A stretch of DNA of 64,000 nucleotides, from the IMG/VR virus record IMGVR_UViG_3300004097_000004; one strand, written 5' to 3'. The notes under the pieces were generated by a model that searched no databases, was not told where the DNA came from, and saw nothing but the letters and a program-made list of their open reading frames with translations. Of the stretch, positions 1,559-22,843 are shown one piece after another; the first letter of the stretch is position 1; every line of letters starts with the position of its first letter. A program made the translations under genes and the position numbers. This DNA is from an uncultured virus (IMG/VR IMGVR_UViG_3300004097_000004) (lineage: Duplodnaviria; Heunggongvirae; Uroviricota; Caudoviricetes; Schitoviridae).

Positions 1559-1723
1559 AGCATTCACAATCCTAATCCTATTCACTGTACTCAGTGCATG
1601 TACAGCAGTGGATAAAGAGTTCACGAATAGTGACGCACGTATTGCATTACACAAGGTGGAATTAGAGGGGTATTAACCTCTCTAGTTCGTAGAGCAAAGA
1701 CAGTAAACGCATGGAGTAATACT

Positions 1724-1987
1724 ATGTATAAGCCACCATCATTTAGCGCACAAGATATAATGGGTAATAGTAACCATGATATATCTAAAGGTAACGTTAA
1801 GACCTTAGCTCGTAAGCTATTCAAGAGTTATGTAGACAATGCAGATATTAAGCTAATACTTACTAACTTACCTTATGGTAAGTCCATAGAAGAGCACCAC
1901 AAGATAGTTAACTATGAATTAACAGATGATCTCTTACTAGAGATAGTTGAATTAATAAGACTTAAACGCTTAGATGAAATCCTATAA
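1724..1987 (+). CDS. C-terminal LxxLDxxL-tail family protein 1
   Basis: Ends IRLKRLDEIL; GGAG RBS. Confidence 0.8.
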   Translation: MYKPPSFSAQDIMGNSNHDISKGNVKTLARKLFKSYVDNADIKLILTNLPYGKSIEEHHKIVNYELTDDLLLEIVELIRLKRLDEIL

Positions 1988-1999
1988 GGAAACCAAAGC

Positions 2000-2197
2000 A
2001 TGCTTACAGTTATAGTAAAAGGTGCATTCACAGGTAAGAGATATATAGCCACTGTTAGAATTGGTACTGTTGATGTAGATGTATCTCACTTACCAGTCAT
2101 AGGTGAGACAAGAGCTGACATAGACAAGGCACTAATAGCTGCTGCTAAAGAAGAGATATTCTTAGCGGGCTTGAAATCAATGGGTAATAAACCATGA
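2000..2197 (+). CDS. Hypothetical protein
   Basis: ORF with AAGGA RBS. Confidence 0.65.
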   Translation: MLTVIVKGAFTGKRYIATVRIGTVDVDVSHLPVIGETRADIDKALIAAAKEEIFLAGLKSMGNKP

Positions 2198-2280
2198 ATA
2201 AAAATGCAGAGATGTCTAGTGAGTTGAAGACCATGCTAATAGAGGCATTAAGACTCCACGATTTAGATAGAATGTTATAG
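2194..2280 (+). CDS. Micro-protein (28 aa), LxxLDxxL-tail family protein 2
   Basis: Hand translation MNKNAEMSSELKTMLIEALRLHDLDRML*; ATGA overlap with the upstream stop; below the ORF-track cutoff. Confidence 0.7.
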   Translation: MNKNAEMSSELKTMLIEALRLHDLDRML

Positions 2281-2281
2281 A

Positions 2282-2299
2282 GCGCACTGGTGCGCTTTT
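2282..2299 (+). promoter_or_regulatory. Putative hairpin promoter, class B (GCGCAC-TG-GTGCGC-TTTT)
   Basis: Related hairpins at 4557, 7895, 37962 and 41402, all intergenic and upstream of RBSs. Confidence 0.6.
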
Positions 2300-2322
2300 A
2301 CCCGATCATTGAGGATATCAAC

Positions 2323-2811
2323 ATGAACAGTAAACAGAAAAAGCTACTAATTCAAGGCTTGAGAGAGATCAAGCCAGATACTAAAAATATTCCATTAGTG
2401 GCTAGCAAAATCATCAATAAGTATGAGGTTACACACGATCAGAAATTAGACCTGAAAAGATTACTACGCATTGTTGTGAGTCCTGAAGACTGTGCTAGTG
2501 ATTACAAACTGCTGCTTAAAACAATAGAAGCAGTAGAGTCACTAGACGCTATTGACCCACCTATGAGTGCTTATGTAGTCTCTCTTGCAGGAAATAAGAG
2601 TGCTATGTATTTGTATACAGATGAGTATAGCTCAATACCTAGTGGTCATTGGACTGAGTATTATACCCAACCTTTACAGCTAATAGTCTATGCCACCTCA
2701 ACTGAACAGGCACAGGAGATGGTTGAAGAAATAATAGTTAAAGATAAGTCACTAGAAAGATACAGTGATTATTCTGTTATAGCCGTCACTCAATCCCTCA
2801 AACTTGAATAG
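2323..2811 (+). CDS. Hypothetical protein
   Basis: GAGG RBS before ATG2323; the track's GTG start lies inside the hairpin. Confidence 0.7.
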   Translation: MNSKQKKLLIQGLREIKPDTKNIPLVASKIINKYEVTHDQKLDLKRLLRIVVSPEDCASDYKLLLKTIEAVESLDAIDPPMSAYVVSLAGNKSAMYLYTDEYSSIPSGHWTEYYTQPLQLIVYATSTEQAQEMVEEIIVKDKSLERYSDYSVIAVTQSLKLE

Positions 2812-2913
2812 CTATTAAACCATGGATATCTCTAAGCTTTTGGGTGAACTACATGAATCTGCCGTAGACCGTTACGGTGCTATACAGATTATCTGTATCA
2901 AGGAGTAAAAACA

Positions 2914-3240
2914 ATGGCTAAAAATGGGTTAGGTATAGTAGTAAATGCTGTGTATAAAAGACCATCATTTGAACCTGCTGCCGATGTATTGAACACTATG
3001 CTATCTTACAGCTACCTGATTGATATCAACAGCGCAGACACAAATGCAATCATTAATGGTATGTTCGCTCAGTTTATATTTGAAACCACAAACAACTTAA
3101 TACGTTCAGATAATACAAAAGAGTTCATAGAGTCTGAGCGTGAATTAATCAAAAGACAAGGTGAACTAGGGCCTTCACCCGCTTTAAGGAAAGCAGTAAG
3201 AAGTGAAATAGAATTAATGAAAATAGATGAAATACTGTAG
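2914..3240 (+). CDS. LxxLDxxL-tail family protein 3
   Basis: Ends IELMKIDEIL; shares YKxPSF with 1724..1987. Confidence 0.8.
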   Translation: MAKNGLGIVVNAVYKRPSFEPAADVLNTMLSYSYLIDINSADTNAIINGMFAQFIFETTNNLIRSDNTKEFIESERELIKRQGELGPSPALRKAVRSEIELMKIDEIL

Positions 3241-3256
3241 TTTAGTTGGGTGCTTG

Positions 3257-3271
3257 GGGCTAACGCCCTTT
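3257..3271 (+). promoter_or_regulatory. Putative hairpin promoter, class A
   Basis: GGGCTAACGCCCTTT, a loop variant of 82-96. Confidence 0.6.
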
Positions 3272-3303
3272 GTGCCCTATGTGTTTAAACAAAAGGAAAT
3301 GAT

Positions 3304-3495
3304 ATGAAACCATCTAAGCAAAGAAAGATGTTGAGAGCAATACAGTCAGACAAGTCACGTAGACGTAATGACAAGCAAGAGATGTTTGATAGACAGACTA
3401 AAGTGATGAATGCTTATGACCCTGAGAGAAAGTTCCGTAGGTATCTCAGAGGTCAGAACATAGACGGTAGAATACACTCAGGATACTGGTGGTGA
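3304..3495 (+). CDS. Basic hypothetical protein
   Basis: AAGGA RBS; Arg/Lys-rich. Confidence 0.65.
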   Translation: MKPSKQRKMLRAIQSDKSRRRNDKQEMFDRQTKVMNAYDPERKFRRYLRGQNIDGRIHSGYWW

Positions 3496-3497
3496 TT

Positions 3498-3746
3498 ATG
3501 GATGAACTAGACCTGTATGACACAGACAGTTTAGCTGAGTACCTAATGAAGAACCACAGAGATACTGGAGCACCTTTGGCTATTGAGGTCAGAGCTATTA
3601 TTACAAGTGCATTGATAACATCAGCAAGCCACAATAGATACGCAGACATACCTAAGATGCGTGCTCAGATGATGGATATGTATCCCGGTATATACCCTAA
3701 AATCACAGAGCTAGTACGGCTCAAGAGGTTGGATAAAATACTATGA
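3498..3746 (+). CDS. LxxLDxxL-tail family protein 4
   Basis: Ends VRLKRLDKIL. Confidence 0.8.
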   Translation: MDELDLYDTDSLAEYLMKNHRDTGAPLAIEVRAIITSALITSASHNRYADIPKMRAQMMDMYPGIYPKITELVRLKRLDKIL

Positions 3747-4024
3747 CTACTCACTTAGATACCGTAGTACAGAATATAGACACCATACTTGCACCTATAA
3801 AACGTAAATCATTGTATGCGCAAGAAGATGAATTACTTAGTGATTTCTCACATAGAGTATTGGTATATCACCTGTATCATTATGCTGATGAAGCAGGTGT
3901 GGTATTCCATGATAGGTCACGATACGTATCGCACTGCTTGGCAGAGATGCTACCTGAAATGCAAGAAATAGTAGCGTACATATCAGAAGAAATATCACTT
4001 ATATTAATGGACAATTTACTATGA
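3743..4024 (+). CDS. LxxLDxxL-tail family protein 5
   Basis: Ends ISLILMDNLL; ATGA-coupled to the upstream gene. Confidence 0.8.
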   Translation: MTTHLDTVVQNIDTILAPIKRKSLYAQEDELLSDFSHRVLVYHLYHYADEAGVVFHDRSRYVSHCLAEMLPEMQEIVAYISEEISLILMDNLL

Positions 4025-4554
4025 GAACAGATAAGCACCACATACAAGCTATGCTTAAATTTAGTGTACTTTTACATATGCACCGTAACAATCAAAGTGT
4101 AGTGACAACTCTAATGCAGAAATATGTAGATAGTCCAGATTACTTTCACAACGTGCATAATACTTTTGGTCCAATACCTAGAATTACACGTATAGAGAAT
4201 CTGCTAACTAATAGTCCTAAGCTGTACAAGAAATTATTAAAAGCTGTAGACAAGCTACGTATTGATACTATGATATCTCCAGAGCGTATATCAACACCCT
4301 CTCAATTAGACGTATCTAATATACTAGAGCAGCTTGAAAGTAGTAAGTATACAACAGACCAATTGGAGTTATTTATACCCTCTAAAATACAAGGCAAAAT
4401 TGAAGAGCACTTGCGTTTCTTAGAGTTATCAGAACCTTTTGACTATAGCAAGTGGTACGATACTAAACACTCTCTTAATGCTGTAGATAAGACACCTCTA
4501 GTAGATGCTGTCATGGATGCATACAAGCTCATTCAGTTAGACAATATCCTGTAA
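4021..4554 (+). CDS. LxxLDxxL-tail family protein 6 (double-length)
   Basis: Ends YKLIQLDNIL; internal degenerate copy VDKLRIDTMI near the midpoint. Confidence 0.8.
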   Translation: MRTDKHHIQAMLKFSVLLHMHRNNQSVVTTLMQKYVDSPDYFHNVHNTFGPIPRITRIENLLTNSPKLYKKLLKAVDKLRIDTMISPERISTPSQLDVSNILEQLESSKYTTDQLELFIPSKIQGKIEEHLRFLELSEPFDYSKWYDTKHSLNAVDKTPLVDAVMDAYKLIQLDNIL

Positions 4555-4556
4555 GG

Positions 4557-4575
4557 GCGCACTCTGCGCTGTATT
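4557..4575 (+). promoter_or_regulatory. Putative hairpin promoter, class B
   Basis: GCGCA-CTC-TGCGC, intergenic, upstream of the RNAP1 operon. Confidence 0.55.
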
Positions 4576-4701
4576 TGAAACCAAACATTAAGGACTTAAA
4601 GATGGGTAAACTAGATGTACTACTGCTGTTGCTTGTGGCTACTATTGTGGTGGCCTATGCAGCTTGCTTAATATTCCCAATGTTCACATAAGGATTAAAC
4701 C

Positions 4702-5013
4702 ATGTTAGATAAAGAGAAGATACTTGAACTAGTGCATAAGGCTGATAAGAAGCGTGACGAGGCTAACAGACTACTTGAAACAACACCCACACCTTTAAAC
4801 CAGACATACCTAAAGCGTGTGCAATATATACAGTCTCACTTAGAGCTGTTGGAGTTAGTACCCGATGTAGGAGTAGTAGCTCACCTACAGAAAGTATTGC
4901 CTGAGTATCTATGGGATATTGAGATCGCTAAAGAGTATGGTAAATACTACTATGATAAAGCCAAGCGTTATGCGGGTGAGGTAGAAGAGTTAAACGAATT
5001 ATTAGACAAGTAA
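4702..5013 (+). CDS. Hypothetical protein
   Basis: ORF with AAGGA RBS. Confidence 0.7.
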   Translation: MLDKEKILELVHKADKKRDEANRLLETTPTPLNQTYLKRVQYIQSHLELLELVPDVGVVAHLQKVLPEYLWDIEIAKEYGKYYYDKAKRYAGEVEELNELLDK

Positions 5014-5041
5014 ATTAATCCCACATAAATAAGGGTAGAAC

Positions 5042-5968
5042 ATGATACGTATAAGTCAGATTAAGATGGAACACCTACTGCACGTACAGCATGTAGAGGA
5101 GAAAGTTAAACAAGAGCTTATTGCTGACCTATACCCACAAGTAGCAAGAGGTGTAGAAGTCTACTCAGAATGGCTAGCAGATACTAAGTGGGAATCCCAT
5201 GAACGTAGGAAGGATGCCATAAGACATATGGATAGAGAGTCAGTAGTAATCAAAGTGCTGACTAAAATATCACGTAATTGTATGAAAGCTCTACCTCTAG
5301 TCAGCATAGCAGGTATGATTAATCTATCTCCTGAATTGGATAAACTAGATAGTATCCAACTCTCATGTGATTTAATAGCTCTATTACAGCCTACAGACCT
5401 CTACAACGTTGAGAAATCTGCCGGAGGTACACAGGTGGTGTATACAACAATAGAGCTGTCAGAGAGCCTTGTGAGACAGATCAGAGTAGGTTGTTATCTA
5501 CCACCTATGATAGAGAAACCACAACGTATCACAAAGAATGATCAGTCAGGCTATTTGACTATCAACAAAGACAGTATGGTACTAGGAGGTGAGTACAATC
5601 AGCACAACGGTAACATCAGTCTTGATGTAATCAACAAGCTAAATGCTAATGAGTACGAGCTAGACACATTCATAACGCAGGAAGGTAAACCATGGCACAG
5701 GGAGTATTTGACACCATTGGATATTTACTGCCTTCGTGAAGCAGACAGGGAGATATACCGCAATGAACTAATCACACGTGAATTATACTTAGAGCAATTC
5801 AATTACCTAAAGACTCTGCTAGCTGAGCGTACACTATGGTTCAACCATAAGCCTGATAAGCGTGGCAGACTGTATTGTCAGGGTTATCACTTCAACACAC
5901 AGGGTAGCTCATACGAAAAAGCAGCAATCAATCTTAAACATAAAGAGTTAATTACTGGAGAATTATAA
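5042..5968 (+). CDS. N4-like RNA polymerase II subunit 1 (gp15-like)
   Basis: T7-type DKRGRLY motif and PPMIEKP; size and position match. Confidence 0.9.
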   Translation: MIRISQIKMEHLLHVQHVEEKVKQELIADLYPQVARGVEVYSEWLADTKWESHERRKDAIRHMDRESVVIKVLTKISRNCMKALPLVSIAGMINLSPELDKLDSIQLSCDLIALLQPTDLYNVEKSAGGTQVVYTTIELSESLVRQIRVGCYLPPMIEKPQRITKNDQSGYLTINKDSMVLGGEYNQHNGNISLDVINKLNANEYELDTFITQEGKPWHREYLTPLDIYCLREADREIYRNELITRELYLEQFNYLKTLLAERTLWFNHKPDKRGRLYCQGYHFNTQGSSYEKAAINLKHKELITGEL

Positions 5969-6141
5969 TGAAAGCATACAAACAATTAATGGCAGCACAG
6001 TTACTAGCAACATTTCAAATGACATCAGTAACTTCACCCTTTGGTTTACCAAGAACCAAGAAGCGTAAGGTGTATCAGGTGTACAACACCAACCAAGAGC
6101 AGGCAAGACGCTTAAAGCAACGTAATAAATAAGGGTTAGTT

Positions 6142-6456
6142 ATGCCTAAGAAAAATGTATTAAAGTTTTCAGATGAGCAGATACTAAAACTAGCTAAAAA
6201 TAAGTTAGGGTTTTTAGTTAATAGACACAATTCTAAAGATAGTGTAAATAACTCAAGAGCCTACAAACTACATAAAAAAGGTTATCTAACCTTTGGACAG
6301 TACGACAGTGCTCATAGGCAATACTGCTTAACTGATGATGGTAAAGAGTATCTTGAAGAACTACAGAAACAGTCAGAATCCTTAATGGGTAGTTCAGATG
6401 GACTTACTAACCTAGCTCCACACATACGGATACCTAAACTAAGACCGTTCAAATAA
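6142..6456 (+). CDS. Hypothetical protein (possible winged-helix)
   Basis: L..KGYL...Y.LT..GKEYL pattern. Confidence 0.55.
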   Translation: MPKKNVLKFSDEQILKLAKNKLGFLVNRHNSKDSVNNSRAYKLHKKGYLTFGQYDSAHRQYCLTDDGKEYLEELQKQSESLMGSSDGLTNLAPHIRIPKLRPFK

Positions 6457-6530
6457 CCCTCACTAGGTGGCTTAGCGTAAGCGGGGCCACCGACACCTAA
6501 TCAATCTCACATAAATAAGAGAGTCATACA

Positions 6531-7724
6531 ATGTTCAATACTTATACCCCAATGCAGTACCTAGCCATTGATATCGCTAATCATTATGGTCTAGACAAGG
6601 AAGTCTATGAAGTACGTATCCAATGGGTTAAAGACAACATAGATAAATTAGAAGAACTGGATGTTGATGCAGATGAGCCAATCCTATACAGAAAGGCAGG
6701 CAATGCTCTACGTATGACCCAACAGGGACTTCCTACAGGACACACAACAGCTTTAGATGCTGTATGTAGTGGATTGCAGCTTATGTCTGTTGTAATGGGC
6801 TGTAAGGCAGGCTGTGCACTCACAGGCCTGATCCATTCAGATGTACGTACGGATGCATACACACTAATCACCCAAGCCATGAACAGAAAGGTATTTGTAG
6901 AGGTGACACGTAAGCAGGCTAAGTCAGCTGTTATGAAAGGCTTATATGGCTCACTAGCAGCACCTAAAGAGGTATTTGGTGACTTAACCCCTCTGTTCTA
7001 TGAAACTCTTAATGAAGAGTGTCCAGGAGCTATGGACTTACTAGAAATGCTTAGAGCAGCATGGAGTGACAAGGTAGACCGTAACTCATGGCAGTTACCT
7101 GATGGGTACTTAGCCATGGTGCCGATCACTCAGAAAGTAGAGTCACGTATCCATGTGGCACAATTGAAATACACGCCTGTAGTCACACACAGTGTTGTAA
7201 CCCCATTAGAGCAAGGTGTAAGCCTTATCGCTAATGTAGTGCATAGTATTGATGCATACGTACTTAGAACTATGGTACGTAGACTGAACTACAGCCCTAA
7301 AATGGTACGTATGCTACTACACACTTTAAAACGTTTTGACGGTGTATACAGAGATTGTGACTCTAACTATCTTGATGTATGGAATGACACTGGCATAGTT
7401 GATATGACTGTCATTGAAGCAACAGACCGTGAGATATATGGTTTCCCTGCCGATATGCGTGAGAAACTTATCAGCATGTTAGAGATGTGTTTAGAACATA
7501 AACCATTTGAATTAGTACTTATTCATGACTCATTCGCTTGTCACCCAAACAACTGCAATCAATTACGTAAGACTTATGCCAACATACTTGCAGACTTGTG
7601 TGACAGCACATTGATTGATGACTTATTAAACCAAGTATATCAGTCAGCTGATGTAGTACAGAAGTACGGCAACACTAAAGAACTAGCAGCAACTATTCGT
7701 CAATCAAATTATGGAATTAGTTAA
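6531..7724 (+). CDS. N4-like RNA polymerase II subunit 2 (gp16-like)
   Basis: Motif A LDAVCSGLQ, motif B RKQAKSAVMKGLYGS, HSIDA, motif C IHDSF. Confidence 0.93.
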   Translation: MFNTYTPMQYLAIDIANHYGLDKEVYEVRIQWVKDNIDKLEELDVDADEPILYRKAGNALRMTQQGLPTGHTTALDAVCSGLQLMSVVMGCKAGCALTGLIHSDVRTDAYTLITQAMNRKVFVEVTRKQAKSAVMKGLYGSLAAPKEVFGDLTPLFYETLNEECPGAMDLLEMLRAAWSDKVDRNSWQLPDGYLAMVPITQKVESRIHVAQLKYTPVVTHSVVTPLEQGVSLIANVVHSIDAYVLRTMVRRLNYSPKMVRMLLHTLKRFDGVYRDCDSNYLDVWNDTGIVDMTVIEATDREIYGFPADMREKLISMLEMCLEHKPFELVLIHDSFACHPNNCNQLRKTYANILADLCDSTLIDDLLNQVYQSADVVQKYGNTKELAATIRQSNYGIS

Positions 7725-7894
7725 TATGATATATGCACAGAAATCTTACCGTTCAACTGAAACAGATGAAATTGTATTTGTATATGATGTAAAGAAGGAC
7801 ACTGTATATTACGAAGACAGCAAAGGTAATATACAAACCCCTTCATTTATATACGATTTTCATGATGAGTTTGTACCAGTGAATTAATTACAGG

Positions 7895-7917
7895 GCGCAC
7901 CTGTGCGCTGTTTCGCT
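7895..7917 (+). promoter_or_regulatory. Putative hairpin promoter, class B
   Basis: GCGCAC-CT-GTGCGC followed by TGTTTCGCT. Confidence 0.6.
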
Positions 7918-7941
7918 CATTCTATTAATAAGGTAAAGACT

Positions 7942-8286
7942 ATGATGGACAATAAATTAGGTAAAATCAGTAAAGCCAGTTTTGGCATAGGTGCTTATAA
8001 TGACACTATGTTAGGGCTACATTTAGAATTGTCATTTAATGGTGGCTCTTCAGGCACTATGACTTCACACTCTATATTGGATTTTAACCGTGTTGAACAT
8101 ACTGAACACACTAAGTGGACAGAAGAAGATCGTGCACAGCAAGCTGTTGAAGTCCTAAAGCACTTGTCAGATACTTTGAAATATGCCAAAGTAAATACTG
8201 TAGAACAGTTGGTAGGCATACCTATCAGAGGACACTTTGATGGTAATACACTACGATCTTGGAGCGTTCTTACTGAAGTTCTCTAA
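7942..8286 (+). CDS. Hypothetical phage protein
   Basis: AAGGT RBS before ATG7942. Confidence 0.7.
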   Translation: MMDNKLGKISKASFGIGAYNDTMLGLHLELSFNGGSSGTMTSHSILDFNRVEHTEHTKWTEEDRAQQAVEVLKHLSDTLKYAKVNTVEQLVGIPIRGHFDGNTLRSWSVLTEVL

Positions 8287-8356
8287 GGCAAAGTATATTA
8301 GGTATCGCAGGTTTCATGGTTATAGACTATCTGAATACACTCAGGAATTTATAACT

Positions 8357-8512
8357 ATGAACCGTAATCTATACCAAAAAATTTCAGACCACTTTAGTCA
8401 GACAGACAGTGAAAAAGAACAGTCAAGAGAAGATGAAATAAACGAGCTACTGTCTGATATAGACATACCTATGGACACTTATGATGATGAGTTATTTATA
8501 ACCTATACATAG
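8357..8512 (+). CDS. Small acidic hypothetical protein
   Basis: AGGA RBS before ATG8357. Confidence 0.5.
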   Translation: MNRNLYQKISDHFSQTDSEKEQSREDEINELLSDIDIPMDTYDDELFITYT

Positions 8513-8530
8513 TGTTAAACACTTACTTAG

Positions 8531-8560
8531 AGACAGCCTTATGGCTGTCTTTTTTCTTTT
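8531..8560 (+). terminator. Rho-independent terminator
   Basis: AGACAGCC-TTAT-GGCTGTCT followed by a T-run. Confidence 0.8.
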
Positions 8561-8575
8561 ATGGAACATTAAAAA

Positions 8576-8953
8576 ATGCCTATTTTAAATATTACCCGCC
8601 ACAAAGCTACTCAAGGTCAATTGGATGACGGAGTAGTTGATCTACCTGAGTACATCATTGACCGTATCAACCGCTTATGTACTTTTCAACCTATCCCTAC
8701 ACTTCAAGAGCTGCGTATCTGTGCAGAGAAAGTGGTGGATATTCTTGAAGAACTTAACCACCCAGACGTAGATGGTGTCATGTGCGGTGGTGCCCCATAT
8801 TTTAATGCCATCTTAGACCGAGCACTAATTAGCCGTGGTTTCGTACCACATTACCCATTCACAGTCCGTAACTACATTCACACTAAAGCCATTAATGGTA
8901 AGACTACGCAAGAAGCAGTGTATGTACATATGGGCTTAGTAAAGACAGCATAG
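8576..8953 (+). CDS. Small Csx20/CARF-like Rossmann protein, candidate cyclic-oligoadenylate ring nuclease
   Basis: Motif order LNITRH..T.GQ / VDLP / FQPIP / MCGG / GFVPHYPFTVR / YVH resembles Csx20-type stand-alone CARF proteins (recalled pattern). Confidence 0.45.
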   Translation: MPILNITRHKATQGQLDDGVVDLPEYIIDRINRLCTFQPIPTLQELRICAEKVVDILEELNHPDVDGVMCGGAPYFNAILDRALISRGFVPHYPFTVRNYIHTKAINGKTTQEAVYVHMGLVKTA

Positions 8954-8960
8954 GCCTTAT

Positions 8961-9146
8961 ATGAACATCAACGAAGCAGAACCAACGTACAACTGTGATG
9001 AATTACTCCAACAGTGTGAAGCAGACTTGGAGTATGCATCAAGCAAAGACTTTCAGATGTTACAACACCGTATTGAAGTCTTAACACACTTAGTGAACTG
9101 TGGTATCCAATACACCACACTCGCTCAATTAAACCAAATTCATTAA
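8961..9146 (+). CDS. Hypothetical protein
   Basis: ORF within an operon. Confidence 0.55.
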   Translation: MNINEAEPTYNCDELLQQCEADLEYASSKDFQMLQHRIEVLTHLVNCGIQYTTLAQLNQIH

Positions 9147-9156
9147 GGAATTAATT

Positions 9157-9369
9157 ATGTCTAGACCAAAGAAGGGTACTAAGTATGTAGTAAGTGTCTG
9201 TGATAGTCACCACCCAGAATTACAAGTAGGTAAGGAACACACAATAGTTGCTTATTCAGGTTCTAACTACACATTGAATACCGGTTGGTATTCACGAATT
9301 GATAACGGTGATATGCTCATTTCAGGTGGTAATACTATATACGCCATTTTAGAGATAACTGACACCTAA
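9157..9369 (+). CDS. Hypothetical protein
   Basis: AAGGA RBS. Confidence 0.6.
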   Translation: MSRPKKGTKYVVSVCDSHHPELQVGKEHTIVAYSGSNYTLNTGWYSRIDNGDMLISGGNTIYAILEITDT

Positions 9370-9431
9370 CACTTGCCAAAAACGTGTTTTGACCTGACAA
9401 CCCCCTAACATCTAACTAAGAGAGATTTAGC

Positions 9432-9704
9432 ATGAAATTGAACCTAAATGAGAAGCAATATATAGCCCAAAGATTCCGTAACGGGGAGCTGCCTGAAGAC
9501 ATTGCAATTGATGTTGGTATCAGTGTAAATGCTGTTAAAAGAGCACTCGCTGATGTTAAAGAAATCAGCCTATCTTGGTACAAAACCAAAGATCAACATG
9601 CCTTGTTAGAGCGTCTGGAGAAGCTAGGCATACATAGTGTCACTGGTTTAAACAACCACTTAAACAAGCTCACTTTTGGAACCAATCCCCTTAATGAGTC
9701 GTAA
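9432..9704 (+). CDS. HTH DNA-binding protein
   Basis: PEDIAIDVGISVNAVKRAL helix-turn-helix pattern. Confidence 0.7.
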   Translation: MKLNLNEKQYIAQRFRNGELPEDIAIDVGISVNAVKRALADVKEISLSWYKTKDQHALLERLEKLGIHSVTGLNNHLNKLTFGTNPLNES

Positions 9705-9963
9705 GATGCAAATTCTTGACTCAGTGATGCAGCACTTCGTAGACCAACCAGACATGCCTATGGACTACTTAATCACTGAAACATGCAGAAAATACTGTGA
9801 CAGTATATTAAGGTCGCAGTTCAGGTCTATAGCTAGTGAAAACCCTGAAGTAAAGAAAGCCTATGACTTAGTAAAACAGACTTTCTTGTACCCTGAAAAT
9901 AATGTGCTAGCAGACTTACTGGAAGAAGCCATATTACTCAAACGTATAGATAGTCTACTTTAG
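9694..9963 (+). CDS. LxxLDxxL-tail family protein 7
   Basis: Ends ILLKRIDSLL; start codon uncertain. Confidence 0.8.
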   Translation: MSRKMQILDSVMQHFVDQPDMPMDYLITETCRKYCDSILRSQFRSIASENPEVKKAYDLVKQTFLYPENNVLADLLEEAILLKRIDSLL

Positions 9964-9971
9964 GAGACATT

Positions 9972-10262
9972 ATGTACAGCACAGAGGAAATAGTAGCTTT
10001 AATTATGGCAGAAGATAGGGATATTGATTCTTCTATATCGCCTAGAGTTACAGCTACATACTGGATTGCAGATTTACATGAATACTTGGGTATAACCTTA
10101 GATGTTATGAAACAAGTTTCTAAATTTAGCAAACTTGATGAAGATACTGAAATGTTTAAAAGACTACAGTACCTTCATGATGTACTGTTGAACCCTTATG
10201 CCGCACTTAATGAACAACTGGCAAATGCTATAAAGCTGATTCTCTTGGACGACATTCTGTAG
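9972..10262 (+). CDS. LxxLDxxL-tail family protein 8
   Basis: Ends IKLILLDDIL; AGGAG RBS. Confidence 0.8.
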   Translation: MYSTEEIVALIMAEDRDIDSSISPRVTATYWIADLHEYLGITLDVMKQVSKFSKLDEDTEMFKRLQYLHDVLLNPYAALNEQLANAIKLILLDDIL

Positions 10263-10271
10263 GAGTCTACT

Positions 10272-10586
10272 ATGCGTAGAGCTAACTTCATTAAGGTACT
10301 GAGACATACAACTCCAGAGGTTGTAGCTGATCAGTTATTTAAAGAAGCACATAGAGACTACATGGATCACCTGTACTCAGATAATTATGATGAATACATA
10401 ATATCCTTATTCAGTGCTTATAGAGAGCAAAACATAAAGTATGTACGTAAGTTAGTAAGAGAGGGTCAATCTAACAAAATGTTAGTCACTATTGCGATAG
10501 TTAATCTAGTGCCTATTGAAGGATGCCCTTTATACAACGCACTCATAGAGTGTATCCACTTAAATAAAATTGATAAAATACTATAG
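10272..10586 (+). CDS. LxxLDxxL-tail family protein 9
   Basis: Ends IHLNKIDKIL; AGGAG RBS. Confidence 0.8.
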   Translation: MRRANFIKVLRHTTPEVVADQLFKEAHRDYMDHLYSDNYDEYIISLFSAYREQNIKYVRKLVREGQSNKMLVTIAIVNLVPIEGCPLYNALIECIHLNKIDKIL

Positions 10587-10592
10587 GAAATA

Positions 10593-11606
10593 TTGCACAT
10601 GAACATCACACTTAAGCAAGTACAACCACTAATTGAAATGGTTTGGTTTGGTAAGAACCCACACACACCTTTCATGCATTCATCACCTGCTATTGGTAAA
10701 TCTTCAGTAGGTCGTCAGCTAGCCAAGAAACATAATTTGAAGTTCATTGATCTACGATTAACTGAGATGGATCCATCTGACTTTAATGGTTTACCCGGTT
10801 TTAGTGAGGGTATTGCTCGCTTCATGCCTTTTGACACATTCCCAACAGAAGATACACCTATACCAGAAGGTTATAGTGGTTGGTTAGTCATGATGGATGA
10901 GATGAACTCAGCTGTGCAGGCGGTGCAAGCCGCGGCATATAAATTCACTCTTGATCACATGGTAGGTCAGCATCGCTTACACCCTAAGCTATACAAATTA
11001 GCTGCAGGTAATCTTGAGTCAGACAATGCAATTGTATCTCCTATGAGTACAGCACTGATCTCACGATTTGCTCACTTCTATATTGATTACAATCATGAAG
11101 ATTGGATGGAATGGGCAGCAGGTAAGATTGATATCCGTCTATACAGCTTCTTTGGCCGTTTCCCTAAGTATGGGTATATGTTTAATGCAGACACAGACAA
11201 GCCATATAGCTGTCCACGTAGTATTAACATGCTGTCCGATGCAACCACCGATAACCAGTTAAACAGTGAGCACAAGCCACTTATAGCTTCATATATTGGT
11301 GATGGTGTTGCTACTGAGTTCATGAGCTTTTTACAGCTCTATAAAGAATTGCCAAGTTTTGAAGAAATCATGGCTGATCCTACAGGCCATAAACCAAGTG
11401 ATAATATGAGTGTACGTTGGGCCACAATGGGCCTAGTAACTCACAATATTGATATGGATAATGCACACCTATGTGAGCAACATTTACGACAGTATGCCCC
11501 TGAGTTGCAGGTATGCGCTTTACGTGATATCAAAGCACGTAATCCAACGGTATTAGCTGCCAAACTCCGTGACTGGCGTATCATGTTATCCCGTGAAATC
11601 ATGTAA
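10593..11606 (+). CDS. MoxR-like AAA+ ATPase (N4 gp24-like)
   Basis: Walker A variant SSPAIGKS, IDLRL, Walker B MMDEMN, AAGN sensor, ALISRF arginine finger. Confidence 0.88.
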   Translation: MHMNITLKQVQPLIEMVWFGKNPHTPFMHSSPAIGKSSVGRQLAKKHNLKFIDLRLTEMDPSDFNGLPGFSEGIARFMPFDTFPTEDTPIPEGYSGWLVMMDEMNSAVQAVQAAAYKFTLDHMVGQHRLHPKLYKLAAGNLESDNAIVSPMSTALISRFAHFYIDYNHEDWMEWAAGKIDIRLYSFFGRFPKYGYMFNADTDKPYSCPRSINMLSDATTDNQLNSEHKPLIASYIGDGVATEFMSFLQLYKELPSFEEIMADPTGHKPSDNMSVRWATMGLVTHNIDMDNAHLCEQHLRQYAPELQVCALRDIKARNPTVLAAKLRDWRIMLSREIM

Positions 11607-11616
11607 GGAATAAACC

Positions 11617-11907
11617 ATGAACATTATAGATGAATCAGTAAAGTTAGTTTTCTCAAACGTAGACTTACCTACAGGTGTTAATGTTCATGTATTTATTGTG
11701 TCCACATTCCTGAGAACCTTAGAAAAGTATTCTAATACTATTGAGGTTCTTGAGAATAGGGAACTACATGAGATGTGTGAGTTTGAAGAAATACACATGA
11801 ACTTGGATCGTCTGTTGGCGCTCAACAAAGACAATGAAGTTGATAAAGAATTTCTCACAGCTGCTGAAGAGTATATGCGGCTAAAAGCTATGGATAAGAT
11901 GCTATGA
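11617..11907 (+). CDS. LxxLDxxL-tail family protein 10
   Basis: Ends MRLKAMDKML. Confidence 0.8.
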   Translation: MNIIDESVKLVFSNVDLPTGVNVHVFIVSTFLRTLEKYSNTIEVLENRELHEMCEFEEIHMNLDRLLALNKDNEVDKEFLTAAEEYMRLKAMDKML

Positions 11908-12209
11908 ATATGCAAATGTCAGACAGTGAGTTAGCTGTAGTAATTTACAAATTCCACAAGAATACTGGATCTATGCTATCTGATTATGCAAGTCTTACCT
12001 TTGCTAAATCTGTGCTGAGTAAATACTATATCTTCATTACCAATCTTCTTGTACATGAGATGCAGTGTGAAAGTATCATCAATCCTGAACACTTAGACAC
12101 CCTAATATTTCTTGATAGATACCTGTATCAACAGTTACATGGTGATCAAGCTTTAGTTCATGCTATCGCAGAGGAGATCAAGTTAAACCAATTGGATGAC
12201 TTACTATGA
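11904..12209 (+). CDS. LxxLDxxL-tail family protein 11
   Basis: Ends IKLNQLDDLL; ATGA-coupled. Confidence 0.8.
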   Translation: MNMQMSDSELAVVIYKFHKNTGSMLSDYASLTFAKSVLSKYYIFITNLLVHEMQCESIINPEHLDTLIFLDRYLYQQLHGDQALVHAIAEEIKLNQLDDLL

Positions 12210-12520
12210 AAAAGTATGTAATGCCTAGTGATAAGGAACTCGCTGCACATATGCTAAAGATTTATTACCTTGGTTTATACCAAAGTATGCCAGCAATCCC
12301 TAGTGACGCTGTTTACATCATTCTACGTGATTATACAGAGTATATGGGTAGGGCACTAAGTGTTATGCGAATACAGAACCTACTTACTGATGACGCTACA
12401 GCCACTTCTACTATGTGTCTCAAGTATGTAACAACCAGTCTACGTAGTAAACAAGATACTAATCTCAAAAGAGAATTAACTGGTTTAGTTAAACTTGAGT
12501 ATTTAGATAATCTTTTATAG
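12206..12520 (+). CDS. LxxLDxxL-tail family protein 12
   Basis: Ends VKLEYLDNLL; ATGA-coupled. Confidence 0.8.
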   Translation: MKKYVMPSDKELAAHMLKIYYLGLYQSMPAIPSDAVYIILRDYTEYMGRALSVMRIQNLLTDDATATSTMCLKYVTTSLRSKQDTNLKRELTGLVKLEYLDNLL

Positions 12521-12549
12521 TTAAACTTTTTAAAACATAGGTAAATATT

Positions 12550-13665
12550 ATGCATACTAAAGAAGTATTAGATAAGGCCTTGTCAGTTGCCAAAATTGAC
12601 ATGATGAAAATGAAGAACACTGTCTTTGTTAGCACTGTTATGTGTTCACTAGATGCTTTCTATGATGACAAAGTACCTACTGCTGCTACCAACGGTAAGT
12701 ACATACGTATTAACCCACACTTCTTTATGGCACTACCACCCACTCAGAGAGTCTTTCTACTAGCCCATGAGACAATGCATGTTGTGTACACTCATATGCT
12801 ACGTAGAGGTGCCAGAGATCATGAGAAGTTCAATATCGCTGCAGACTATGTAATCAATTATGAGCTTGTCCAACAAGGATTAGAGTTTATACCTATTGGT
12901 TTATACGATGAGAAATACAGAGGTATGAGCACAGAAGAAGTATATGACCTACTGCCTGACACTTTACCTAATAATGGTATGGGTGGTGATATTGAAGAAC
13001 CTGACAATGAAGAAGAGGCCGTAGACGTTCAATCTGATGTAGAGAATATAATTAGCAGAGCTACCCAGTTAGCTGATATGCGAGGTGCAGGCGGGTCAGT
13101 ACCAGAGTCTGTAAGACGTATGCTTATCAATATGACAGAACCAAAAGTTAACTGGCGCCATGTCACTCGCAAGTTCTTTACAACTTTAGACAAGCATAAT
13201 TACACTTGGTCCAGACCTAATAGACGATACCAAGAGTTTTACCTACCAAGCGTTCGTAAAGATGTATCTCTAGATAAGATCACCTTTGCTTTAGACGCAT
13301 CATGCAGTGTTACTAATAATCAGTTTGACCAATTCATATCTGAAATATTAGCAGTGTTTAAAACACTCAAACCAAAAGTTATTGAGCTTATGCAGTTTGA
13401 CCACCTATTGCAGAGCGTAGAAGATGTGAAATCTCTAAACCAATTACTCAGTGTTGAGTTCAAGGGTAGAGGCGGTACACGACCTATCGTAGCTATTGAA
13501 GCATTCATGAAATCAAGAGACTCTAAAGCACTCATTGTCATTACTGATGGTGAGTTTGGCACTAACCTACCTAAGCCTAAACAGCCTGTGGTTTGGGTAA
13601 TATTTAATAACCCACGATTTAAAGCCCCTTATGGGAAAGTTATTCACGTTGATATACCACGTTAA
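12550..13665 (+). CDS. Metallopeptidase + vWA domain protein (DUF2201-like, N4 gp25-like)
   Basis: TAATNG, HETMH zincin motif, NIAADYVIN; MIDAS DASCS...GGT...ITDG. Confidence 0.9.
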   Translation: MHTKEVLDKALSVAKIDMMKMKNTVFVSTVMCSLDAFYDDKVPTAATNGKYIRINPHFFMALPPTQRVFLLAHETMHVVYTHMLRRGARDHEKFNIAADYVINYELVQQGLEFIPIGLYDEKYRGMSTEEVYDLLPDTLPNNGMGGDIEEPDNEEEAVDVQSDVENIISRATQLADMRGAGGSVPESVRRMLINMTEPKVNWRHVTRKFFTTLDKHNYTWSRPNRRYQEFYLPSVRKDVSLDKITFALDASCSVTNNQFDQFISEILAVFKTLKPKVIELMQFDHLLQSVEDVKSLNQLLSVEFKGRGGTRPIVAIEAFMKSRDSKALIVITDGEFGTNLPKPKQPVVWVIFNNPRFKAPYGKVIHVDIPR

Positions 13666-13676
13666 AGGAAAGACTA

Positions 13677-14930
13677 ATGATTGTTTTAAACAAAGATCAA
13701 ATGCAAGCCAAGAATAGGCTTGTTGAGTTTATTGAAGGTAATGAGACTAAGCCAATTATTCTTACTGGTTCAGCAGGTACAGGTAAGACTTCTACTATTA
13801 CTCAGGTAATTACAGATATCCGTGAGCTTGAAAAACTTGACGGTATTTTGGATGATAACCCTAAAGCACGTAAATGGTTCTTCACTGCCACTACCAATAA
13901 GGCCAAGCAAGCTATTCAAAAGAGTTTGCCTAATCAGGAAGTGAACACCATTCACTCATTACTGAACTTGCGACCTTACCGTGGTTACTTAACACACAGT
14001 AAGAATGCTCAAGATAAGATTGGGCAACACCCTGCAGTGCTTATCATTGATGAGTGTTCATATATTGATAATAAGCTGTTGGAGTTTATCTCTGACCTTG
14101 TACCTAAAAATGTGAAGATTATCTATATTGGTGATGCTAATCAGCTCACACCAGTTAAGTCTGATCACTGTCCAGTATTTGAGCAAGGTTATGAGTTAAT
14201 CAAACTAACCACTCTAGTACGCCAAACCAATGCACCAAAGATTGGTGACATCTGTGAAGCCTTTAAAGCATTCATTGAGTCAGAAGGTTCTATACCATTC
14301 CCTAAAGTCACACTTAGTGATGAGATCAGCTATTTAGATAATGCAGCCTTTAATCAAAAAATTGAAGATGTGTTTATTACAAATGAAGAGCTGACCCTAC
14401 ACAACCGTGTACTGGCAGGAACTAACGCTGTGGTACAACACCACAACAAGAACCTCTTTCAGATGGCTAACGGACGTACAGAGCTTGTAGGAGGCGATAC
14501 TGTAGTTAGTAATAACTATGTGAAAGGTATCAAGACAGATGAAGAAGTTATCATCATAGATAAGTCAGTGTACAAGTCAGCAATAGACTTCTGTAATGGC
14601 ACCATATTCCACATACAGAGCATGTCAGCCACAGCTGAGGTGTTTGTACCAGACCAACCTAAACAGTGCTTAAAACGCCTTATGGAGATCGTAGATGACC
14701 ATGACTCTCTATATGCACGTGAAGCCAATCAGTTATATGACTCAATGGCTGATCTACGTCCTCTGTATGCAAGTACAGTACACAAGAGCCAAGGTAGTAC
14801 GTTCAAGAACGTCTACATTGATTTAAGCTCACTATCGTATGTGCGTGATCCAGTGGCACTAGCCCGCCTAATCTACGTATCATTCTCACGTGCTTCTGAG
14901 CACATTTACTTAACTGGAGATATTGGATAA
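13677..14930 (+). CDS. SF1 Dda/RecD-like DNA helicase
   Basis: GSAGTGKT, TIHS, IIDECS, GDANQLTPV, TVHKSQGST motifs. Confidence 0.92.
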   Translation: MIVLNKDQMQAKNRLVEFIEGNETKPIILTGSAGTGKTSTITQVITDIRELEKLDGILDDNPKARKWFFTATTNKAKQAIQKSLPNQEVNTIHSLLNLRPYRGYLTHSKNAQDKIGQHPAVLIIDECSYIDNKLLEFISDLVPKNVKIIYIGDANQLTPVKSDHCPVFEQGYELIKLTTLVRQTNAPKIGDICEAFKAFIESEGSIPFPKVTLSDEISYLDNAAFNQKIEDVFITNEELTLHNRVLAGTNAVVQHHNKNLFQMANGRTELVGGDTVVSNNYVKGIKTDEEVIIIDKSVYKSAIDFCNGTIFHIQSMSATAEVFVPDQPKQCLKRLMEIVDDHDSLYAREANQLYDSMADLRPLYASTVHKSQGSTFKNVYIDLSSLSYVRDPVALARLIYVSFSRASEHIYLTGDIG

Positions 14931-15776: not shown

Positions 15777-17520
15777 ATGAAACATTTAACCTTTGCAGGC
15801 AATCTCAAAGAAACCTATACAACCGCTATTCTTATTAAAGAAAAGTATTTTAAAGGGGACAGAATAGCCCAACACTATGTTGACCCTTTAGTGAAATTAG
15901 ATGTTGAACGTAATTCAATAATTGCGTTTGACTTGAGTTACCCAAATGACAAAGTAACAGCTACTAAGGCCAAAGAATATCTTGGATACTTGTTACCGGC
16001 CTTAGTTAAGCTAGGTGTCACAAACATGTTAGTAGCTGATGCAGCCTACTTTAAAATTCTCACAGGCTCTAAGAAAGCTGAGCAACATACTGGTTATGTA
16101 TTGCCTTGTACCATTAAAGGTTTTACTCACATGCATGTGTCTTACTGTATTAATTACGGTGTACTCATGCATAACCCAAACCAAGTTACTAAACTGGACT
16201 TATCTATACAAAGTATGGCAAAGCATCTTAAAGGTGTGGATATTGCTCTAGGGGATTCAGTACTTGTAGACCCTCAGTATTACCGTAACCTACGTGTACA
16301 GGATGCACAACTAGCCTTAGAACGTTTAATGCATAAACCAATGATAACCTGTGACATTGAGACTTATGGTTTACGTATTGATGAAGCAGGTTTAGGTAGT
16401 ATTGCTTTCTCTTGGAACCAGACAGAGGGTGTTTCATTCTTTGTAGGTAACGATAGTGCATCAATGCGTTATATCAAACAGTTCTTTGAACGTTACCGCG
16501 GCAAGATTATCTACCATAACGCTACCTTTGATATTAAACATATCATCTACAGTTGCTTTATGAAGCACTCACTAGACCACGTAGGTATGTTACATGGCTT
16601 AGATGTGATGACTCGTAATATTCACGACACCAAGATTATTGCTTACCTAGCTACCAATAGCACAGCAGGTAATGAACTTGGCTTAAAAGTATTAGCACAG
16701 CCTTACTTAGGTAATTGGGGTGTAGATGTAACGGATATTACTAAGCTGAGTATGTCTGAGTTATTACGTTATAACTTAGAAGACTGCGTAGGTACTTACT
16801 ACGTATTTAATAAGTATTTCCCTATGATGCTGAAAGACGATCAGGAGTCTATCTACAATGAGATTATGATACCTAGTGTCAAACTGATTGTTCAGATGGA
16901 ACTAGTAGGTATGCCTATGGATATGCAGCAAGTGCATGCCACTGAGAAGTATCTACAAGACCTTGAAGCCAAATATTTAGATGTCATCATGACTGATAGC
17001 AATGTACTCAAAGCCAAGCATCTTATACAGGTAGCTGAACTGGCTAAGATCAATGCCAAGTTAAAAACTAAACAGCACGGTATGGATAAGGTAAGAGATT
17101 TACCATTCAATCCTAATAGCTCTAATCAGTTGATTGTACTGTTGCATGAAGTCTTAGACTTACCTGTAATTGATACAACACCTACTGGTGCACCATCCGC
17201 AGGTGCTAAGACTATTGCTAAGCTGAAGAACCATACCAATGATCCACAGGTGAAGATGCTATTAATAGCTCTCATGGATTTGGCTAAAGTTACTATCTTA
17301 CTCAGCACCTTTATCCCTTCGTTCCTTAAAGCCATGCCTAAAGCTAACTGGCACTATCTACATGGTAGTTTCAATATTGGTGGAACACTCAGTGGTAGAC
17401 TGTCTAGTTCTAACCCGAACATGCAGAATATTCCTAGTGGTAGTACTCACTCTAAACCAATTAAACAATGCTTTAAACCTCCTGCAGGTTGGTTATTCCT
17501 TGGTGCAGATTTTGCAAGTT
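15777..17520 (+). CDS. Family A DNA polymerase, N-terminal chain, exon 1 (3'-5' exonuclease, thumb, start of motif A)
   Basis: DIET (ExoI), HNATFD (ExoII), YNLED (ExoIII), TLSGRLSSSNPNMQNIP, GADFAS-L. Confidence 0.93.
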
Positions 17521-19702: not shown

Positions 19703-19982
19703 ACAATTTGGTGCCATGGATTTTCTCTATGACACCTTGTGGTCTTACCCTGTCTATGAAAATGAGCATACCTTAGATATCATTAAAGCCATGTTTATCA
19801 AAGAAACTGATGAACTCATTGAGAGTTACAGACAGGACACCATGGATTACAGATCACGTATACAAGATGCTGAAGCACTATTACTTGCTGTACAGCAATG
19901 TGAAACCCTTGATGATTTTCAACGTCTTGAATATACAATATTTGAAAGTACAGAACTTTTAGGGAGTCCCAATGTCCAATGA
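19677..19982 (+). CDS. Hypothetical protein
   Basis: AGGTG RBS; similar size and N-terminal FG motif to 19388..19702. Confidence 0.6.
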   Translation: MEIQLTWIKQFGAMDFLYDTLWSYPVYENEHTLDIIKAMFIKETDELIESYRQDTMDYRSRIQDAEALLLAVQQCETLDDFQRLEYTIFESTELLGSPNVQ

Positions 19983-22797: not shown

Positions 22798-22819
22798 TAC
22801 TTGAAGTATTAACCAAACA

Positions 22820-22843
22820 GCCCTAGAACTTTCTAGGGTTTTT
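22820..22843 (+). terminator. Rho-independent terminator
   Basis: CCCTAGAA/TTCTAGGG stem followed by a T-run. Confidence 0.75.

Follow-up and report, generated by a model that had tools for sequence, protein, structure and literature searches.

Why should a dozen small proteins of one bacteriophage, whose N-terminal parts bear no detectable likeness to one another, all finish in the same residues directly before the stop codon? The question is raised by IMG/VR record IMGVR_UViG_3300004097_000004, a stretch of 64,000 nucleotides from an uncultured virus of the Schitoviridae (hereafter, the window), in which twelve plus-strand open reading frames (ORFs) within positions 1724-12520 end h-x-L-x-x-h-D-x-h-L-stop, h being a hydrophobic residue. 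A previous reading of the bare letters (the sequence-only reading) had listed these ORFs and proposed that the constant tail docks on one common partner. Our analysis shows that the tail is a real, strongly selected, peptide-level module, carried on heads without detectable likeness, on no head at all in a protein of 28 residues, and on a long head in a protein of 177 residues. The twelve proteins constitute a new family of orphans whose C-terminal helix is modular and under selection.

A shared tail ends flush with the stop codon of twelve ORFs

All twelve ORFs were found where the sequence-only reading had placed them, with the tails it had quoted, and its description of their ends held throughout. 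Counting back from the C-terminus, Leu(-8), Asp(-4) and Leu(-1) occur in 12 of 12 tails, positions -10, -5 and -2 are hydrophobic in every case (with one Tyr at -10), and the motif always abuts the stop codon. Position -3 is polar in all twelve. The conserved module exceeds ten residues, with hydrophobic residues at -18 and -14, Glu at -12 in 8 of 12 tails and Lys or Arg at -9, again in 8 of 12.

A six-frame scan of the window placed the strict motif directly 5′ of a stop codon 13 times, in the twelve ORFs and in one 16-codon stretch of the minus strand; elsewhere in the six-frame translation the core pattern occurred only twice, once across a stop. The sequence-only reading had proposed shuffled sequences as a control, and the tails proved to be far above that background. 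Terminal matches averaged 0.04 per window over 200 window shuffles (maximum 2), and the motif was present in 11 of the 121 ORFs of at least 60 residues, compared to a mean of 0.002 across 500 residue shuffles. A profile search with the tail, also proposed there, separated the family within the window: among 323 ORFs of at least 25 residues, the twelve scored 20.9-31.8 bits with a 22-residue profile, always flush with the C-terminus, and the best of the remaining 311 reached 8.2 bits. Outside the window, 7346 ORFs from 53 further loci gave a single strict match, on a related phage contig, L042. No strict match was detected on either strand in the small ORFs of six other Schitoviridae loci. The exact end is conserved as well, since the stop codon follows Leu(-1) in 12 of 12 window genes and the hydrophobic pair in 6 of 6 tailed genes of L042. 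It is kept across four 3′ contexts, namely a stop within the next ribosome-binding site, an ATGA overlap, a hairpin, and a gap of at least 30 nucleotides (nt).

The tailed genes form two blocks, six of them early, 5′ of the RNAPII genes, and the other six around the genes for a MoxR-like ATPase and a DUF2201/VWA protein. The early block holds ORF 1724..1987 (87 residues, IRLKRLDEIL, 21.1 bits, with GGAG 8 nt 5′ of the ATG), ORF 2194..2280 (28 residues, essentially a tail alone, LRLHDLDRML, 31.1 bits), ORF 2914..3240 (108 residues, IELMKIDEIL, 24.1 bits, AAGGAG 5′ of the start), ORF 3498..3746 (82 residues, VRLKRLDKIL, 29.3 bits), ORF 3743..4024 (93 residues, ISLILMDNLL, 25.8 bits, with an ATGA overlap at either end) and ORF 4021..4554, whose long head brings it to 177 residues (YKLIQLDNIL, 27.3 bits). 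In the middle block, ORF 9694..9963 (89 residues, ILLKRIDSLL, 20.9 bits), ORF 9972..10262 (96 residues, IKLILLDDIL, 24.1 bits) and ORF 10272..10586 (104 residues, IHLNKIDKIL, 31.8 bits) lie 5′ of the ATPase gene. ORF 11617..11907 (96 residues, MRLKAMDKML, 28.7 bits) is the first gene 3′ of it, followed by ORF 11904..12209 (101 residues, IKLNQLDDLL, 30.7 bits) and by ORF 12206..12520 (104 residues, VKLEYLDNLL, 23.8 bits), the last gene 5′ of the DUF2201/VWA gene. The N-termini of ORFs 3498 and 9694 are uncertain, because earlier starts at GTG 3489 and TTG 9676 would give 85 and 95 residues, respectively. Most of the twelve starts have a Shine-Dalgarno-like sequence or ATGA coupling, and the genes are tightly packed on the same strand, so that they look like real genes.

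One further ORF, at 2000..2197 on the plus strand (65 residues), carries a decayed tail. Lys replaces Asp, four extra residues follow, and the tail profile gives it 2.2 bits; its residues 42-61 are identical to the tail of ORF 11904 at 9 of 20 positions (BLASTP E-value 0.004 for that single comparison). Its stop overlaps the start of ORF 2194 in an ATGA, and ORF 2194 is not a read-through of it, because stops lie just 5′ in the frame of ORF 2194. The two may represent a partial duplication or a split gene, their 65 and 28 residues adding up to 93, the usual size in the family.

The tail is conserved as a peptide

In the last ten codons, the first, second and third positions carried 0.95, 1.25 and 0.39 bits of information, respectively, where a random column of twelve would give 0.20. 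Leu(-8) is encoded by CTC, CTT, TTA, CTG and CTA, with both codon families in use. When degenerate residues were compared between tails, the same codon was found at 159 of 437 same-residue pair-positions, and 148.5 were expected from the codon usage of the phage. Because third positions are nearly free and codon identity stays at the level of codon usage, nucleotide-level conservation and recent gene conversion are absent, and the tail copies are old, their silent sites saturated while the residues have been held. The claim of the sequence-only reading that selection acts on the peptide, with synonymous variation of codons, is thus borne out by the codon counts.

Some tails nevertheless adjoin signals for the next gene. 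In four cases the next ribosome site starts in the stop codon (TAGGAG, TAGGAA or TAAGGA), and G is the last base of the -5 codon in all four ATGA overlaps compared to 1 of 8 other genes (Fisher 0.010), which gives TGGA nine bases 5′ of the next ATG. The motif is intact, however, in four genes followed by a hairpin or a gap of at least 30 nt, and Glu never takes the place of Asp(-4), even though its codon GAG would improve the ribosome site. This is not the pattern of a translation-initiation footprint, given the low information at third positions and the restriction of TGGA inside the tail to the four ATGA overlaps.

Heads are divergent and the tail is a predicted terminal helix

Once the last 20-22 residues had been removed, the heads showed no pairwise similarity (best 5.4 bits), and leave-one-out profiles built from ten heads failed to single out the eleventh, which ranked between 3 and 81 of 84-85 sequences including decoys and shuffles. 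These results agree with the variable head and constant tail described by the sequence-only reading. Where that reading gave about 70-90 N-terminal residues, head length was found to range from 0 up to about 155. Head isoelectric points span 4.5 to 9.1; the whole proteins have 0-2 Cys each and most are acidic.

AlphaFold models were obtained for two members. ORF 9972 was predicted to be all-alpha, with a last helix at residues 74-95 of 96 and an overall predicted local distance difference test score (pLDDT) of 60.6. In the model of ORF 1724 (overall pLDDT 59.5), residues 1-19 are disordered and helices span residues 20-39, 42-47, 53-58 and 68-86. In both models the tail is a single long terminal helix and the most confident part (pLDDT 72-78). 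Structure prediction had been put forward as a way to see whether the heads share a fold; both models are indeed all-alpha, but at such low confidence that they do not decide the point. Co-folding of ORF 11904 with ORF 12206 gave a score of 0.00 in a run without controls and weighs neither way.

The tail consensus appears to follow the genome

Relatives of the MoxR-like ATPase were found in metagenomes at 73-83% identity (P0015-P0018, one of them on a contig of 74,701 bases), and named ones in Moraxella at 51-55%. Used alone as query, the ATPase had no match in viral or metagenome contig collections. An alignment that included the metagenomic relatives recovered 51 viral and 2 genomic loci, of which the tail profile and the strict motif picked just one, L042, a 52-kb IMG/VR contig estimated to be 70% complete. 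L042 shows synteny with the window and 56-64% identity in its core proteins, and six small tailed genes surround its ATPase gene, ending ...IRMALINRII, ...LKVHQINKIL, ...VLLNSIGEIL, ...SNQLTRELL, ...ILLKKIEEII and ...FKLLALDKIL. The L042 ATPase gene is itself interrupted: about 0.9 kb separates its N-terminal part (8820-9122) from its C-terminal part (10064-10711).

ORF 11617 has an orthologue at L042 10721-11014 (30% identity over 90 residues, E-value 4.6e-12, head identity 34%). Full-length homologues were also found for ORF 2914, at 11305-11619 (28% over 96 residues, E-value 5e-6, head identity 23%), and for ORF 9972, at 8259-8528 (E-value 4e-4, head identity 26%). The early block of the window (1724-4554) is without counterpart in L042, and the closest homologue of its ORF 2914 sits in the middle block of L042, from which it follows that the tailed family has grown or moved within the lineage.

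Comparison of the two genomes qualified the description of the tail as strictly conserved. Asp(-4) is present in 12 of 12 tails of the window but in only 1 of 6 in L042 (Fisher 0.0007), where the residues at -4 are N, N, G, R, E and D; strictness therefore holds within the window's genome and not in its relative. Over the last ten residues, mean identities were 4.59 between window paralogues, 2.33 between L042 paralogues and 2.92 across the two phages. For two of three orthologue pairs, the window tail shares more residues with the tails of its in-genome paralogues (3.9 and 5.2) than with the orthologous tail (2 and 3); in the third pair the order is reversed, the orthologue's tail being closer (6 versus 4.4). 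Heads behave in the opposite way to tails, as BLAST detects orthologous heads and not paralogous ones. Because tails for the most part resemble paralogues of their own genome while heads resemble orthologues, the constraint on the tail seems to be genome-wide, and the consensus, above all Asp(-4), would be largely a property of the genome and not of each protein. Such a constraint is expected if all tails are read by one surface, whether on a common partner or on one another, and is unexpected for a helix merely packing on its own head.

Other Schitoviridae carry recurrent tails of their own

No recurrent tail was found in N4, Erwinia phage S6 or Enterobacter phage SABI. In Vibrio phage pVa5 (vB_VspP_pVa5), 27 of 59 small plus-strand ORFs end h-x-x-h-h-[EDN]-x(0-3), typically ...ELK[LM]xxL[LM]E-x, and 14 of 71 do so in Vibrio phage PJN101. 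This pattern, which was written post hoc, after viewing the data, gave 0 matches in N4, S6, SABI and Acinetobacter phage Presley and 0-1 on minus strands. The heads of the pVa5 proteins are heterogeneous, and several carry CxxC...CxxC motifs. By profile, no relationship was detected between the tails of the window and those of the Vibrio phages (at most 7.6 bits with the window profile, an hhalign probability of 0.5%, and at most 4.7 bits with the pVa5 profile on window ORFs), and h-[KR]-[LM]-x-x-[LIM] is common to them by eye only. In Presley the set, ending ...NLLG-x, is weaker (4 of 42): small proteins at 11280-12679, 14313-14837 and 23567-23866 have ...A-[KRQ]-x-N-L-[LI]-G-x(1-3) at or near their end, and the Gly codon coincides with the annotated ribosome-binding site of the next gene.

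Like the window family, the sets of pVa5, PJN101 and Presley consist of small early or middle genes of Schitoviridae with heterogeneous heads and a lineage-specific amphipathic C-terminal consensus. Unlike the window tail, which stops at the hydrophobic pair, the pVa5 and PJN101 tails run 1-4 residues beyond it and embed in frame the GGAG (xTG-GAG) and the start (GAT-G/AAT-G) of the next gene. Their register K(-8)-[LM](-7)-x-x-L(-4)-[LM](-3) stays constant with GGAG in either place, -7/-6 or -3/-2. In parts of the Schitoviridae, recurrent tails specific to a lineage thus seem to be common, and they are always entangled with translational coupling.

Database searches found no relatives of the family

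None of the twelve proteins reached a curated Pfam cut-off, the best being UPF0020 with 17.2 bits where 22.3 are needed. Eleven had no PHROGs family at an E-value of 0.01 or below; ORF 10272 alone matched phrog_9764 (function unknown, E-value 5.1e-5), and, as a single query, it recovered only itself among 5.8 billion proteins. A family profile run against those 5.8 billion proteins found the window's own proteins alone, and against 1.84 billion representatives it gave six matches at an E-value of 0.001 or below, five of them the window's own. We took the sixth, a 559-residue repeat protein matched internally, as unrelated. By itself the tail yields at most 32 bits, which is below significance in these libraries, so that tails on other heads may be missed. 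Among PDB sequences, the best match to the tail profile had an E-value of 1.1. The ESM Atlas gave no usable matches for ORFs 9972 and 4021, its models having a pLDDT of 0.44 and 0.39. A full-text literature search brought up no paper describing C-terminal tails shared among proteins of N4-like phages, and term searches of the pVa5 paper (PMC5746245) and of PMC10654107 found no mention of shared tails.

Readings of the conserved tail

The reading that we favour, with a probability of roughly 0.45, makes the tail a portable interaction helix that a single common partner recognises. Each protein would consist of a freely evolving head and a constant amphipathic C-terminal helix of 18-22 residues with the exact end L-x-x-h-D-x-h-L-COOH. 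In its last turn, Leu(-8), the hydrophobic residue at -5, Asp(-4) and Leu(-1) would lie on one face with the free end right behind, and this turn would plug into one common surface on a phage or host protein. Docking would bring all members to the same place, and the heads would supply differing activities. It is possible, though doubtful, that the tail goes further and serves as an address label, the dozen proteins being adaptors whose heads seize different host or defence proteins while the helix plugs into one machine. A protease or unfoldase, a polymerase, or a replication hub would be candidates for that machine. Label and reader would then co-evolve, with Asp(-4) fixed here and free in the nearest relative, and with other labels in the Vibrio-phage lineages. 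Several observations weigh against a common partner. The comparative support comes from six genes of the single contig L042, and the family is known from this phage and one relative. The L042 tail is loose, with a varied -4 position and few identities among paralogues, and a hard-wired docking site might be steadier. One of the three orthologue pairs keeps its head (25 of 74 residues) better than its tail (4 of 22). The extreme end of the tail sequence partly serves the translation start of the next gene, as seen in the G bias of the -5 codon, and the -4/-3 codons of L042 read GGAGAA, GAAGAA and AGGGAA at gene overlaps, where they double as ribosome sites. Finally, the low-confidence models would also suit one helical fold shared by all members, with the tail as a core helix.

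A genome-wide consensus is likewise predicted if the tails bind one another, the C-terminal helices zipping into homo- or hetero-oligomers, as dimers or as a multi-subunit bundle. One part of the earlier proposal, a single reader for all tails, fits the genome-wide constraint, while the sequences would be explained as well by mutual binding, which we regard as unlikely. The helix is amphipathic and several members are translationally coupled through ATGA. In parallel coiled coils, g-e′ salt bridges form between residues five apart, and this is the spacing between the frequent Lys or Arg at -9 and Asp(-4). A check for leucine-zipper a/d positions over at least three heptads showed that -8, -5 and -1 fit a, d and a; however, only about 1.3 heptads are in register, which is short for a stable zipper, as the next core positions upstream are -12, Glu in 8 of 12, and the variable -15. 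Moreover, the hydrophobic stripe at -18, -14 and -10 lies on a different face, and coiled coils do not usually require an exact C-terminal end. We consider it quite unlikely that the proteins are an ordinary fast-evolving paralogous family with one small helical fold, in which the C-terminal helix is the best-kept element and has no specific partner. Both modelled members are all-alpha with 4-5 helices, the three members with full-length L042 homologues have heads that may be merely fast-evolving, and L042 keeps just the hydrophobic pattern of the tail, as a packing helix would. Yet all detectable information resides in the last 22 residues (21-32 bits), the heads performing no better than shuffles, and a tail-only protein of 28 residues exists beside a member of 177. 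A packing helix likewise does not account for the invariant Asp beside the hydrophobic face, for the exact terminus in 18 of 18 genes of two phages, or for an Asp(-4) that is fixed in one genome and free in its relative, since a per-protein constraint predicts otherwise.

We hold it to be improbable that a host machine reads the tail to decide the fate of these early and middle proteins, either as a C-terminal degron by which their removal is timed or as an export signal resembling those of type 1 secretion. Known degrons need less than a conserved helix of 18-22 residues, and the ssrA-like ClpX degron ends L-A-A-COOH; all twelve tails end in a polar residue, [ILM] and Leu, not in small non-polar residues, and that candidate was rejected. 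According to PMC2642768, proteases exported by ABC transporters end in an extreme C-terminal Asp followed by three hydrophobic residues, and one added residue impairs their secretion. The window tails resemble those of type 1-secreted proteases and lipases in the acidic residue four from an exposed end and the hydrophobic residues behind it, and a hydrophobic end with a free carboxylate in 12 of 12, the low Cys content and the mostly acidic proteins would suit such a signal. The polar residue at -3 means, however, that Asp is not followed by three hydrophobic residues, GGxGxD repeats had 0 matches in the 12 proteins, and the type 1 secretion motif was set aside; the window proteins also differ from the secreted proteases in being small, predicted helical and phage-encoded. 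Why a lytic phage should export a dozen of its early proteins is not evident, and L042 carries N, G, R or E at -4. Very improbable for the window is the view that the tail is a by-product of nucleotide constraints at gene junctions (the ribosome-binding site or start of the next gene) or a recombination cassette. It draws on PJN101 and pVa5, whose tails contain the Shine-Dalgarno site and overlapping start of the next gene, on the Presley NLLG end that falls on annotated ribosome-binding sites, and, in the window, on the four stops within TAGGAG-type sites and the G of the -5 codon. For the window it is already close to refuted by the third-position information, the codon identity at its expected level, the alternation of CTN and TTA for Leu, the absence of Glu in place of Asp, and the intact motif in four genes without a nearby 3′ start.

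Gene setting of the tailed ORFs

Window genes lie on the plus strand up to about 24 kb, and the GC (guanine plus cytosine) content of the window is about 39%. The two subunits of an N4-type RNAPII are encoded at 5042-5968 and 6531-7724 (phrog_2166 and phrog_2051, N4-like RNA polymerase), the MoxR-like ATPase, resembling gp24, at 10593-11606 (phrog_1297), and the gp25-like DUF2201 metallopeptidase/VWA protein at 12550-13665 (DUF2201_N and DUF2201). A Dda-like helicase and a family A DNA polymerase are also encoded. On the minus strand there are a 2831-residue ORF and a 4098-residue ORF at 48369-60665, the latter a putative virion RNA polymerase by size and position alone. Because the RNAPII subunits, the ATPase, the DUF2201/VWA gene and the giant ORF are encoded together, with the genes in N4 order, the window is assigned by gene content to an N4-like phage of the Schitoviridae. 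Its best matches among 50,697 phage records were all Schitoviridae, with identities of at most 41.4% for the ATPase and 39.3% for the large RNAPII subunit, and megablast of 1700-12600 against the same records returned zero matches. Since the window's proteins recur on two metagenomic contigs of 75,480 and 75,347 bases, the window represents most, the left two-thirds, of one uncultured phage genome.

Three plus-strand hairpins of the form GCGCA-N3-4-TGCGC were found at 2282-2295, 4557-4569 and 7895-7908, compared to 0.02 expected. They have common flanks (AG[AG]GCGCAC...T-rich) and each lies 30-45 nt 5′ of a ribosome-binding site and ATG; the first two are directly 3′ of tailed genes. N4 virion RNA polymerase uses hairpin promoters, and these hairpins are candidate virion RNA polymerase promoters or terminators. 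Judging from their positions, the following genes would truly start at the ATGs near 2322 and 7939-7942. Behind hairpin 4557, an ATG opens a mostly hydrophobic ORF of 29 residues (4602-4691, ...LLLLLVATIVVAYAACLIFPMFT), which may encode a small membrane peptide.

The family A DNA polymerase gene is split into 15777-17543 and 20643-21386, and the gap of about 3 kb contains an HNH endonuclease gene (17650-18213), a second HNH-like ORF (19972-20676) and small ORFs. At 22273-23473, a protein with a Tad2-like domain (Thoeris anti-defence 2, E-value 1.7e-16) adjoins an Nmad5 nucleotide-modification-associated protein (E-value 6.5e-28). Among the closest named relatives of the MoxR-like ATPase (51-57% identity), proteins P0025 and P0069 and loci L007 and L009-L011 belong to Moraxella chromosome-sized contigs, or to viral contigs 97-100% identical to those proteins. 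N4-like elements seem to be associated with Moraxella genomes, and their GC content is about 33%. For the window, with its GC content of 39%, Moraxellaceae would be no more than a guess at the host. By eye, L007, L010 and also L012 have no window-type tails; L007 carries three small paralogues ending ...F[FY]YKGL[NR]xL.

Known docking tails and significance of the family

Several proteins dock on one hub through a C-terminal tail, among them partners of the SSB tail, proteins with beta-clamp-binding motifs, and phage T4 gp43, gp55 and gp33, whose tails bind the gp45 clamp. The window tails are like these in being short conserved peptides at the extreme C-terminus of otherwise unrelated proteins, with hydrophobic and acidic residues and an end position that matters. 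They would differ in form, since clamp and SSB tails are extended peptides on flexible linkers and the window tail is the end of a predicted helix of 19-22 residues. The beta-clamp-binding consensus is QL[SD]LF or QLxLxL; with Gln at -6 in only 2 of 12 tails, hydrophobic residues at -5, -2 and -1, and a polar -3 throughout, this motif was discarded. C-terminal membrane-targeting helices of the MinD/FtsA type are cationic and amphipathic, and this candidate was rejected too: over their last 22 residues, 11 of the 12 proteins have no net positive charge (range -5.2 to +2.5). No transmembrane segment was found in the 12 proteins, the longest uncharged hydrophobic run being at most 7 residues.

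Adaptors provide a second comparison. The ClpX-binding tail of the SspB type is a docking module shared by adaptors. An adaptor-like protein of phage SPO1 acts on ClpCP, according to bioRxiv 10.1101/569657, and sets a precedent for a small early phage protein as adaptor of a host protease. Like these adaptors, the window proteins would combine a variable recognition part with a constant part that plugs into one machine, though their tail has no sequence likeness to them; an adaptor set of twelve in one phage was not found described in the literature. The same source gives SPO1 a host-takeover module of 26 genes. Families of this kind, like that of the window, comprise many small, fast-evolving orphan genes in early regions, and some of their products are known to strike host machines; unlike the window family, these sets are not described as having a terminal peptide in common. 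Table 1 of PMC6466130 gives HolA, a clamp-loader protein, as the target of gp8, a 71-residue early protein of N4. Encoded at 2593-2808 of the N4 locus (L002), gp8 ends MLEGLL-COOH, resembling the last five residues of the window tail, but has Glu for Asp and Ala at -8, and in a single protein this may be chance; with no match to the tail profile of at least 3 bits in the N4 locus, we treat it as a lead only.

The principle of shared terminal docking peptides and of adaptor sets is already known, and the proposed docking function of the window tails is plausible. One caution applies to similar searches: recurrent C-terminal motifs in packed phage operons can partly be the ribosome-binding site and start of the next gene read in frame, and codon-level controls are therefore needed before a peptide motif is claimed. 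If the tail is an address label, the family would be a bacterial-virus counterpart of the F-box or SOCS-box receptor families. The early genes of lytic phages are for the most part orphans that offer no handle for study. With a shared, mutable plug of ten residues, one experiment could place a dozen such proteins and could reveal a hub on which the phage relies, and, because Vibrio phages pVa5 and PJN101 are in culture and have parallel, lineage-specific tails of their own, the idea could be put to a bench test.

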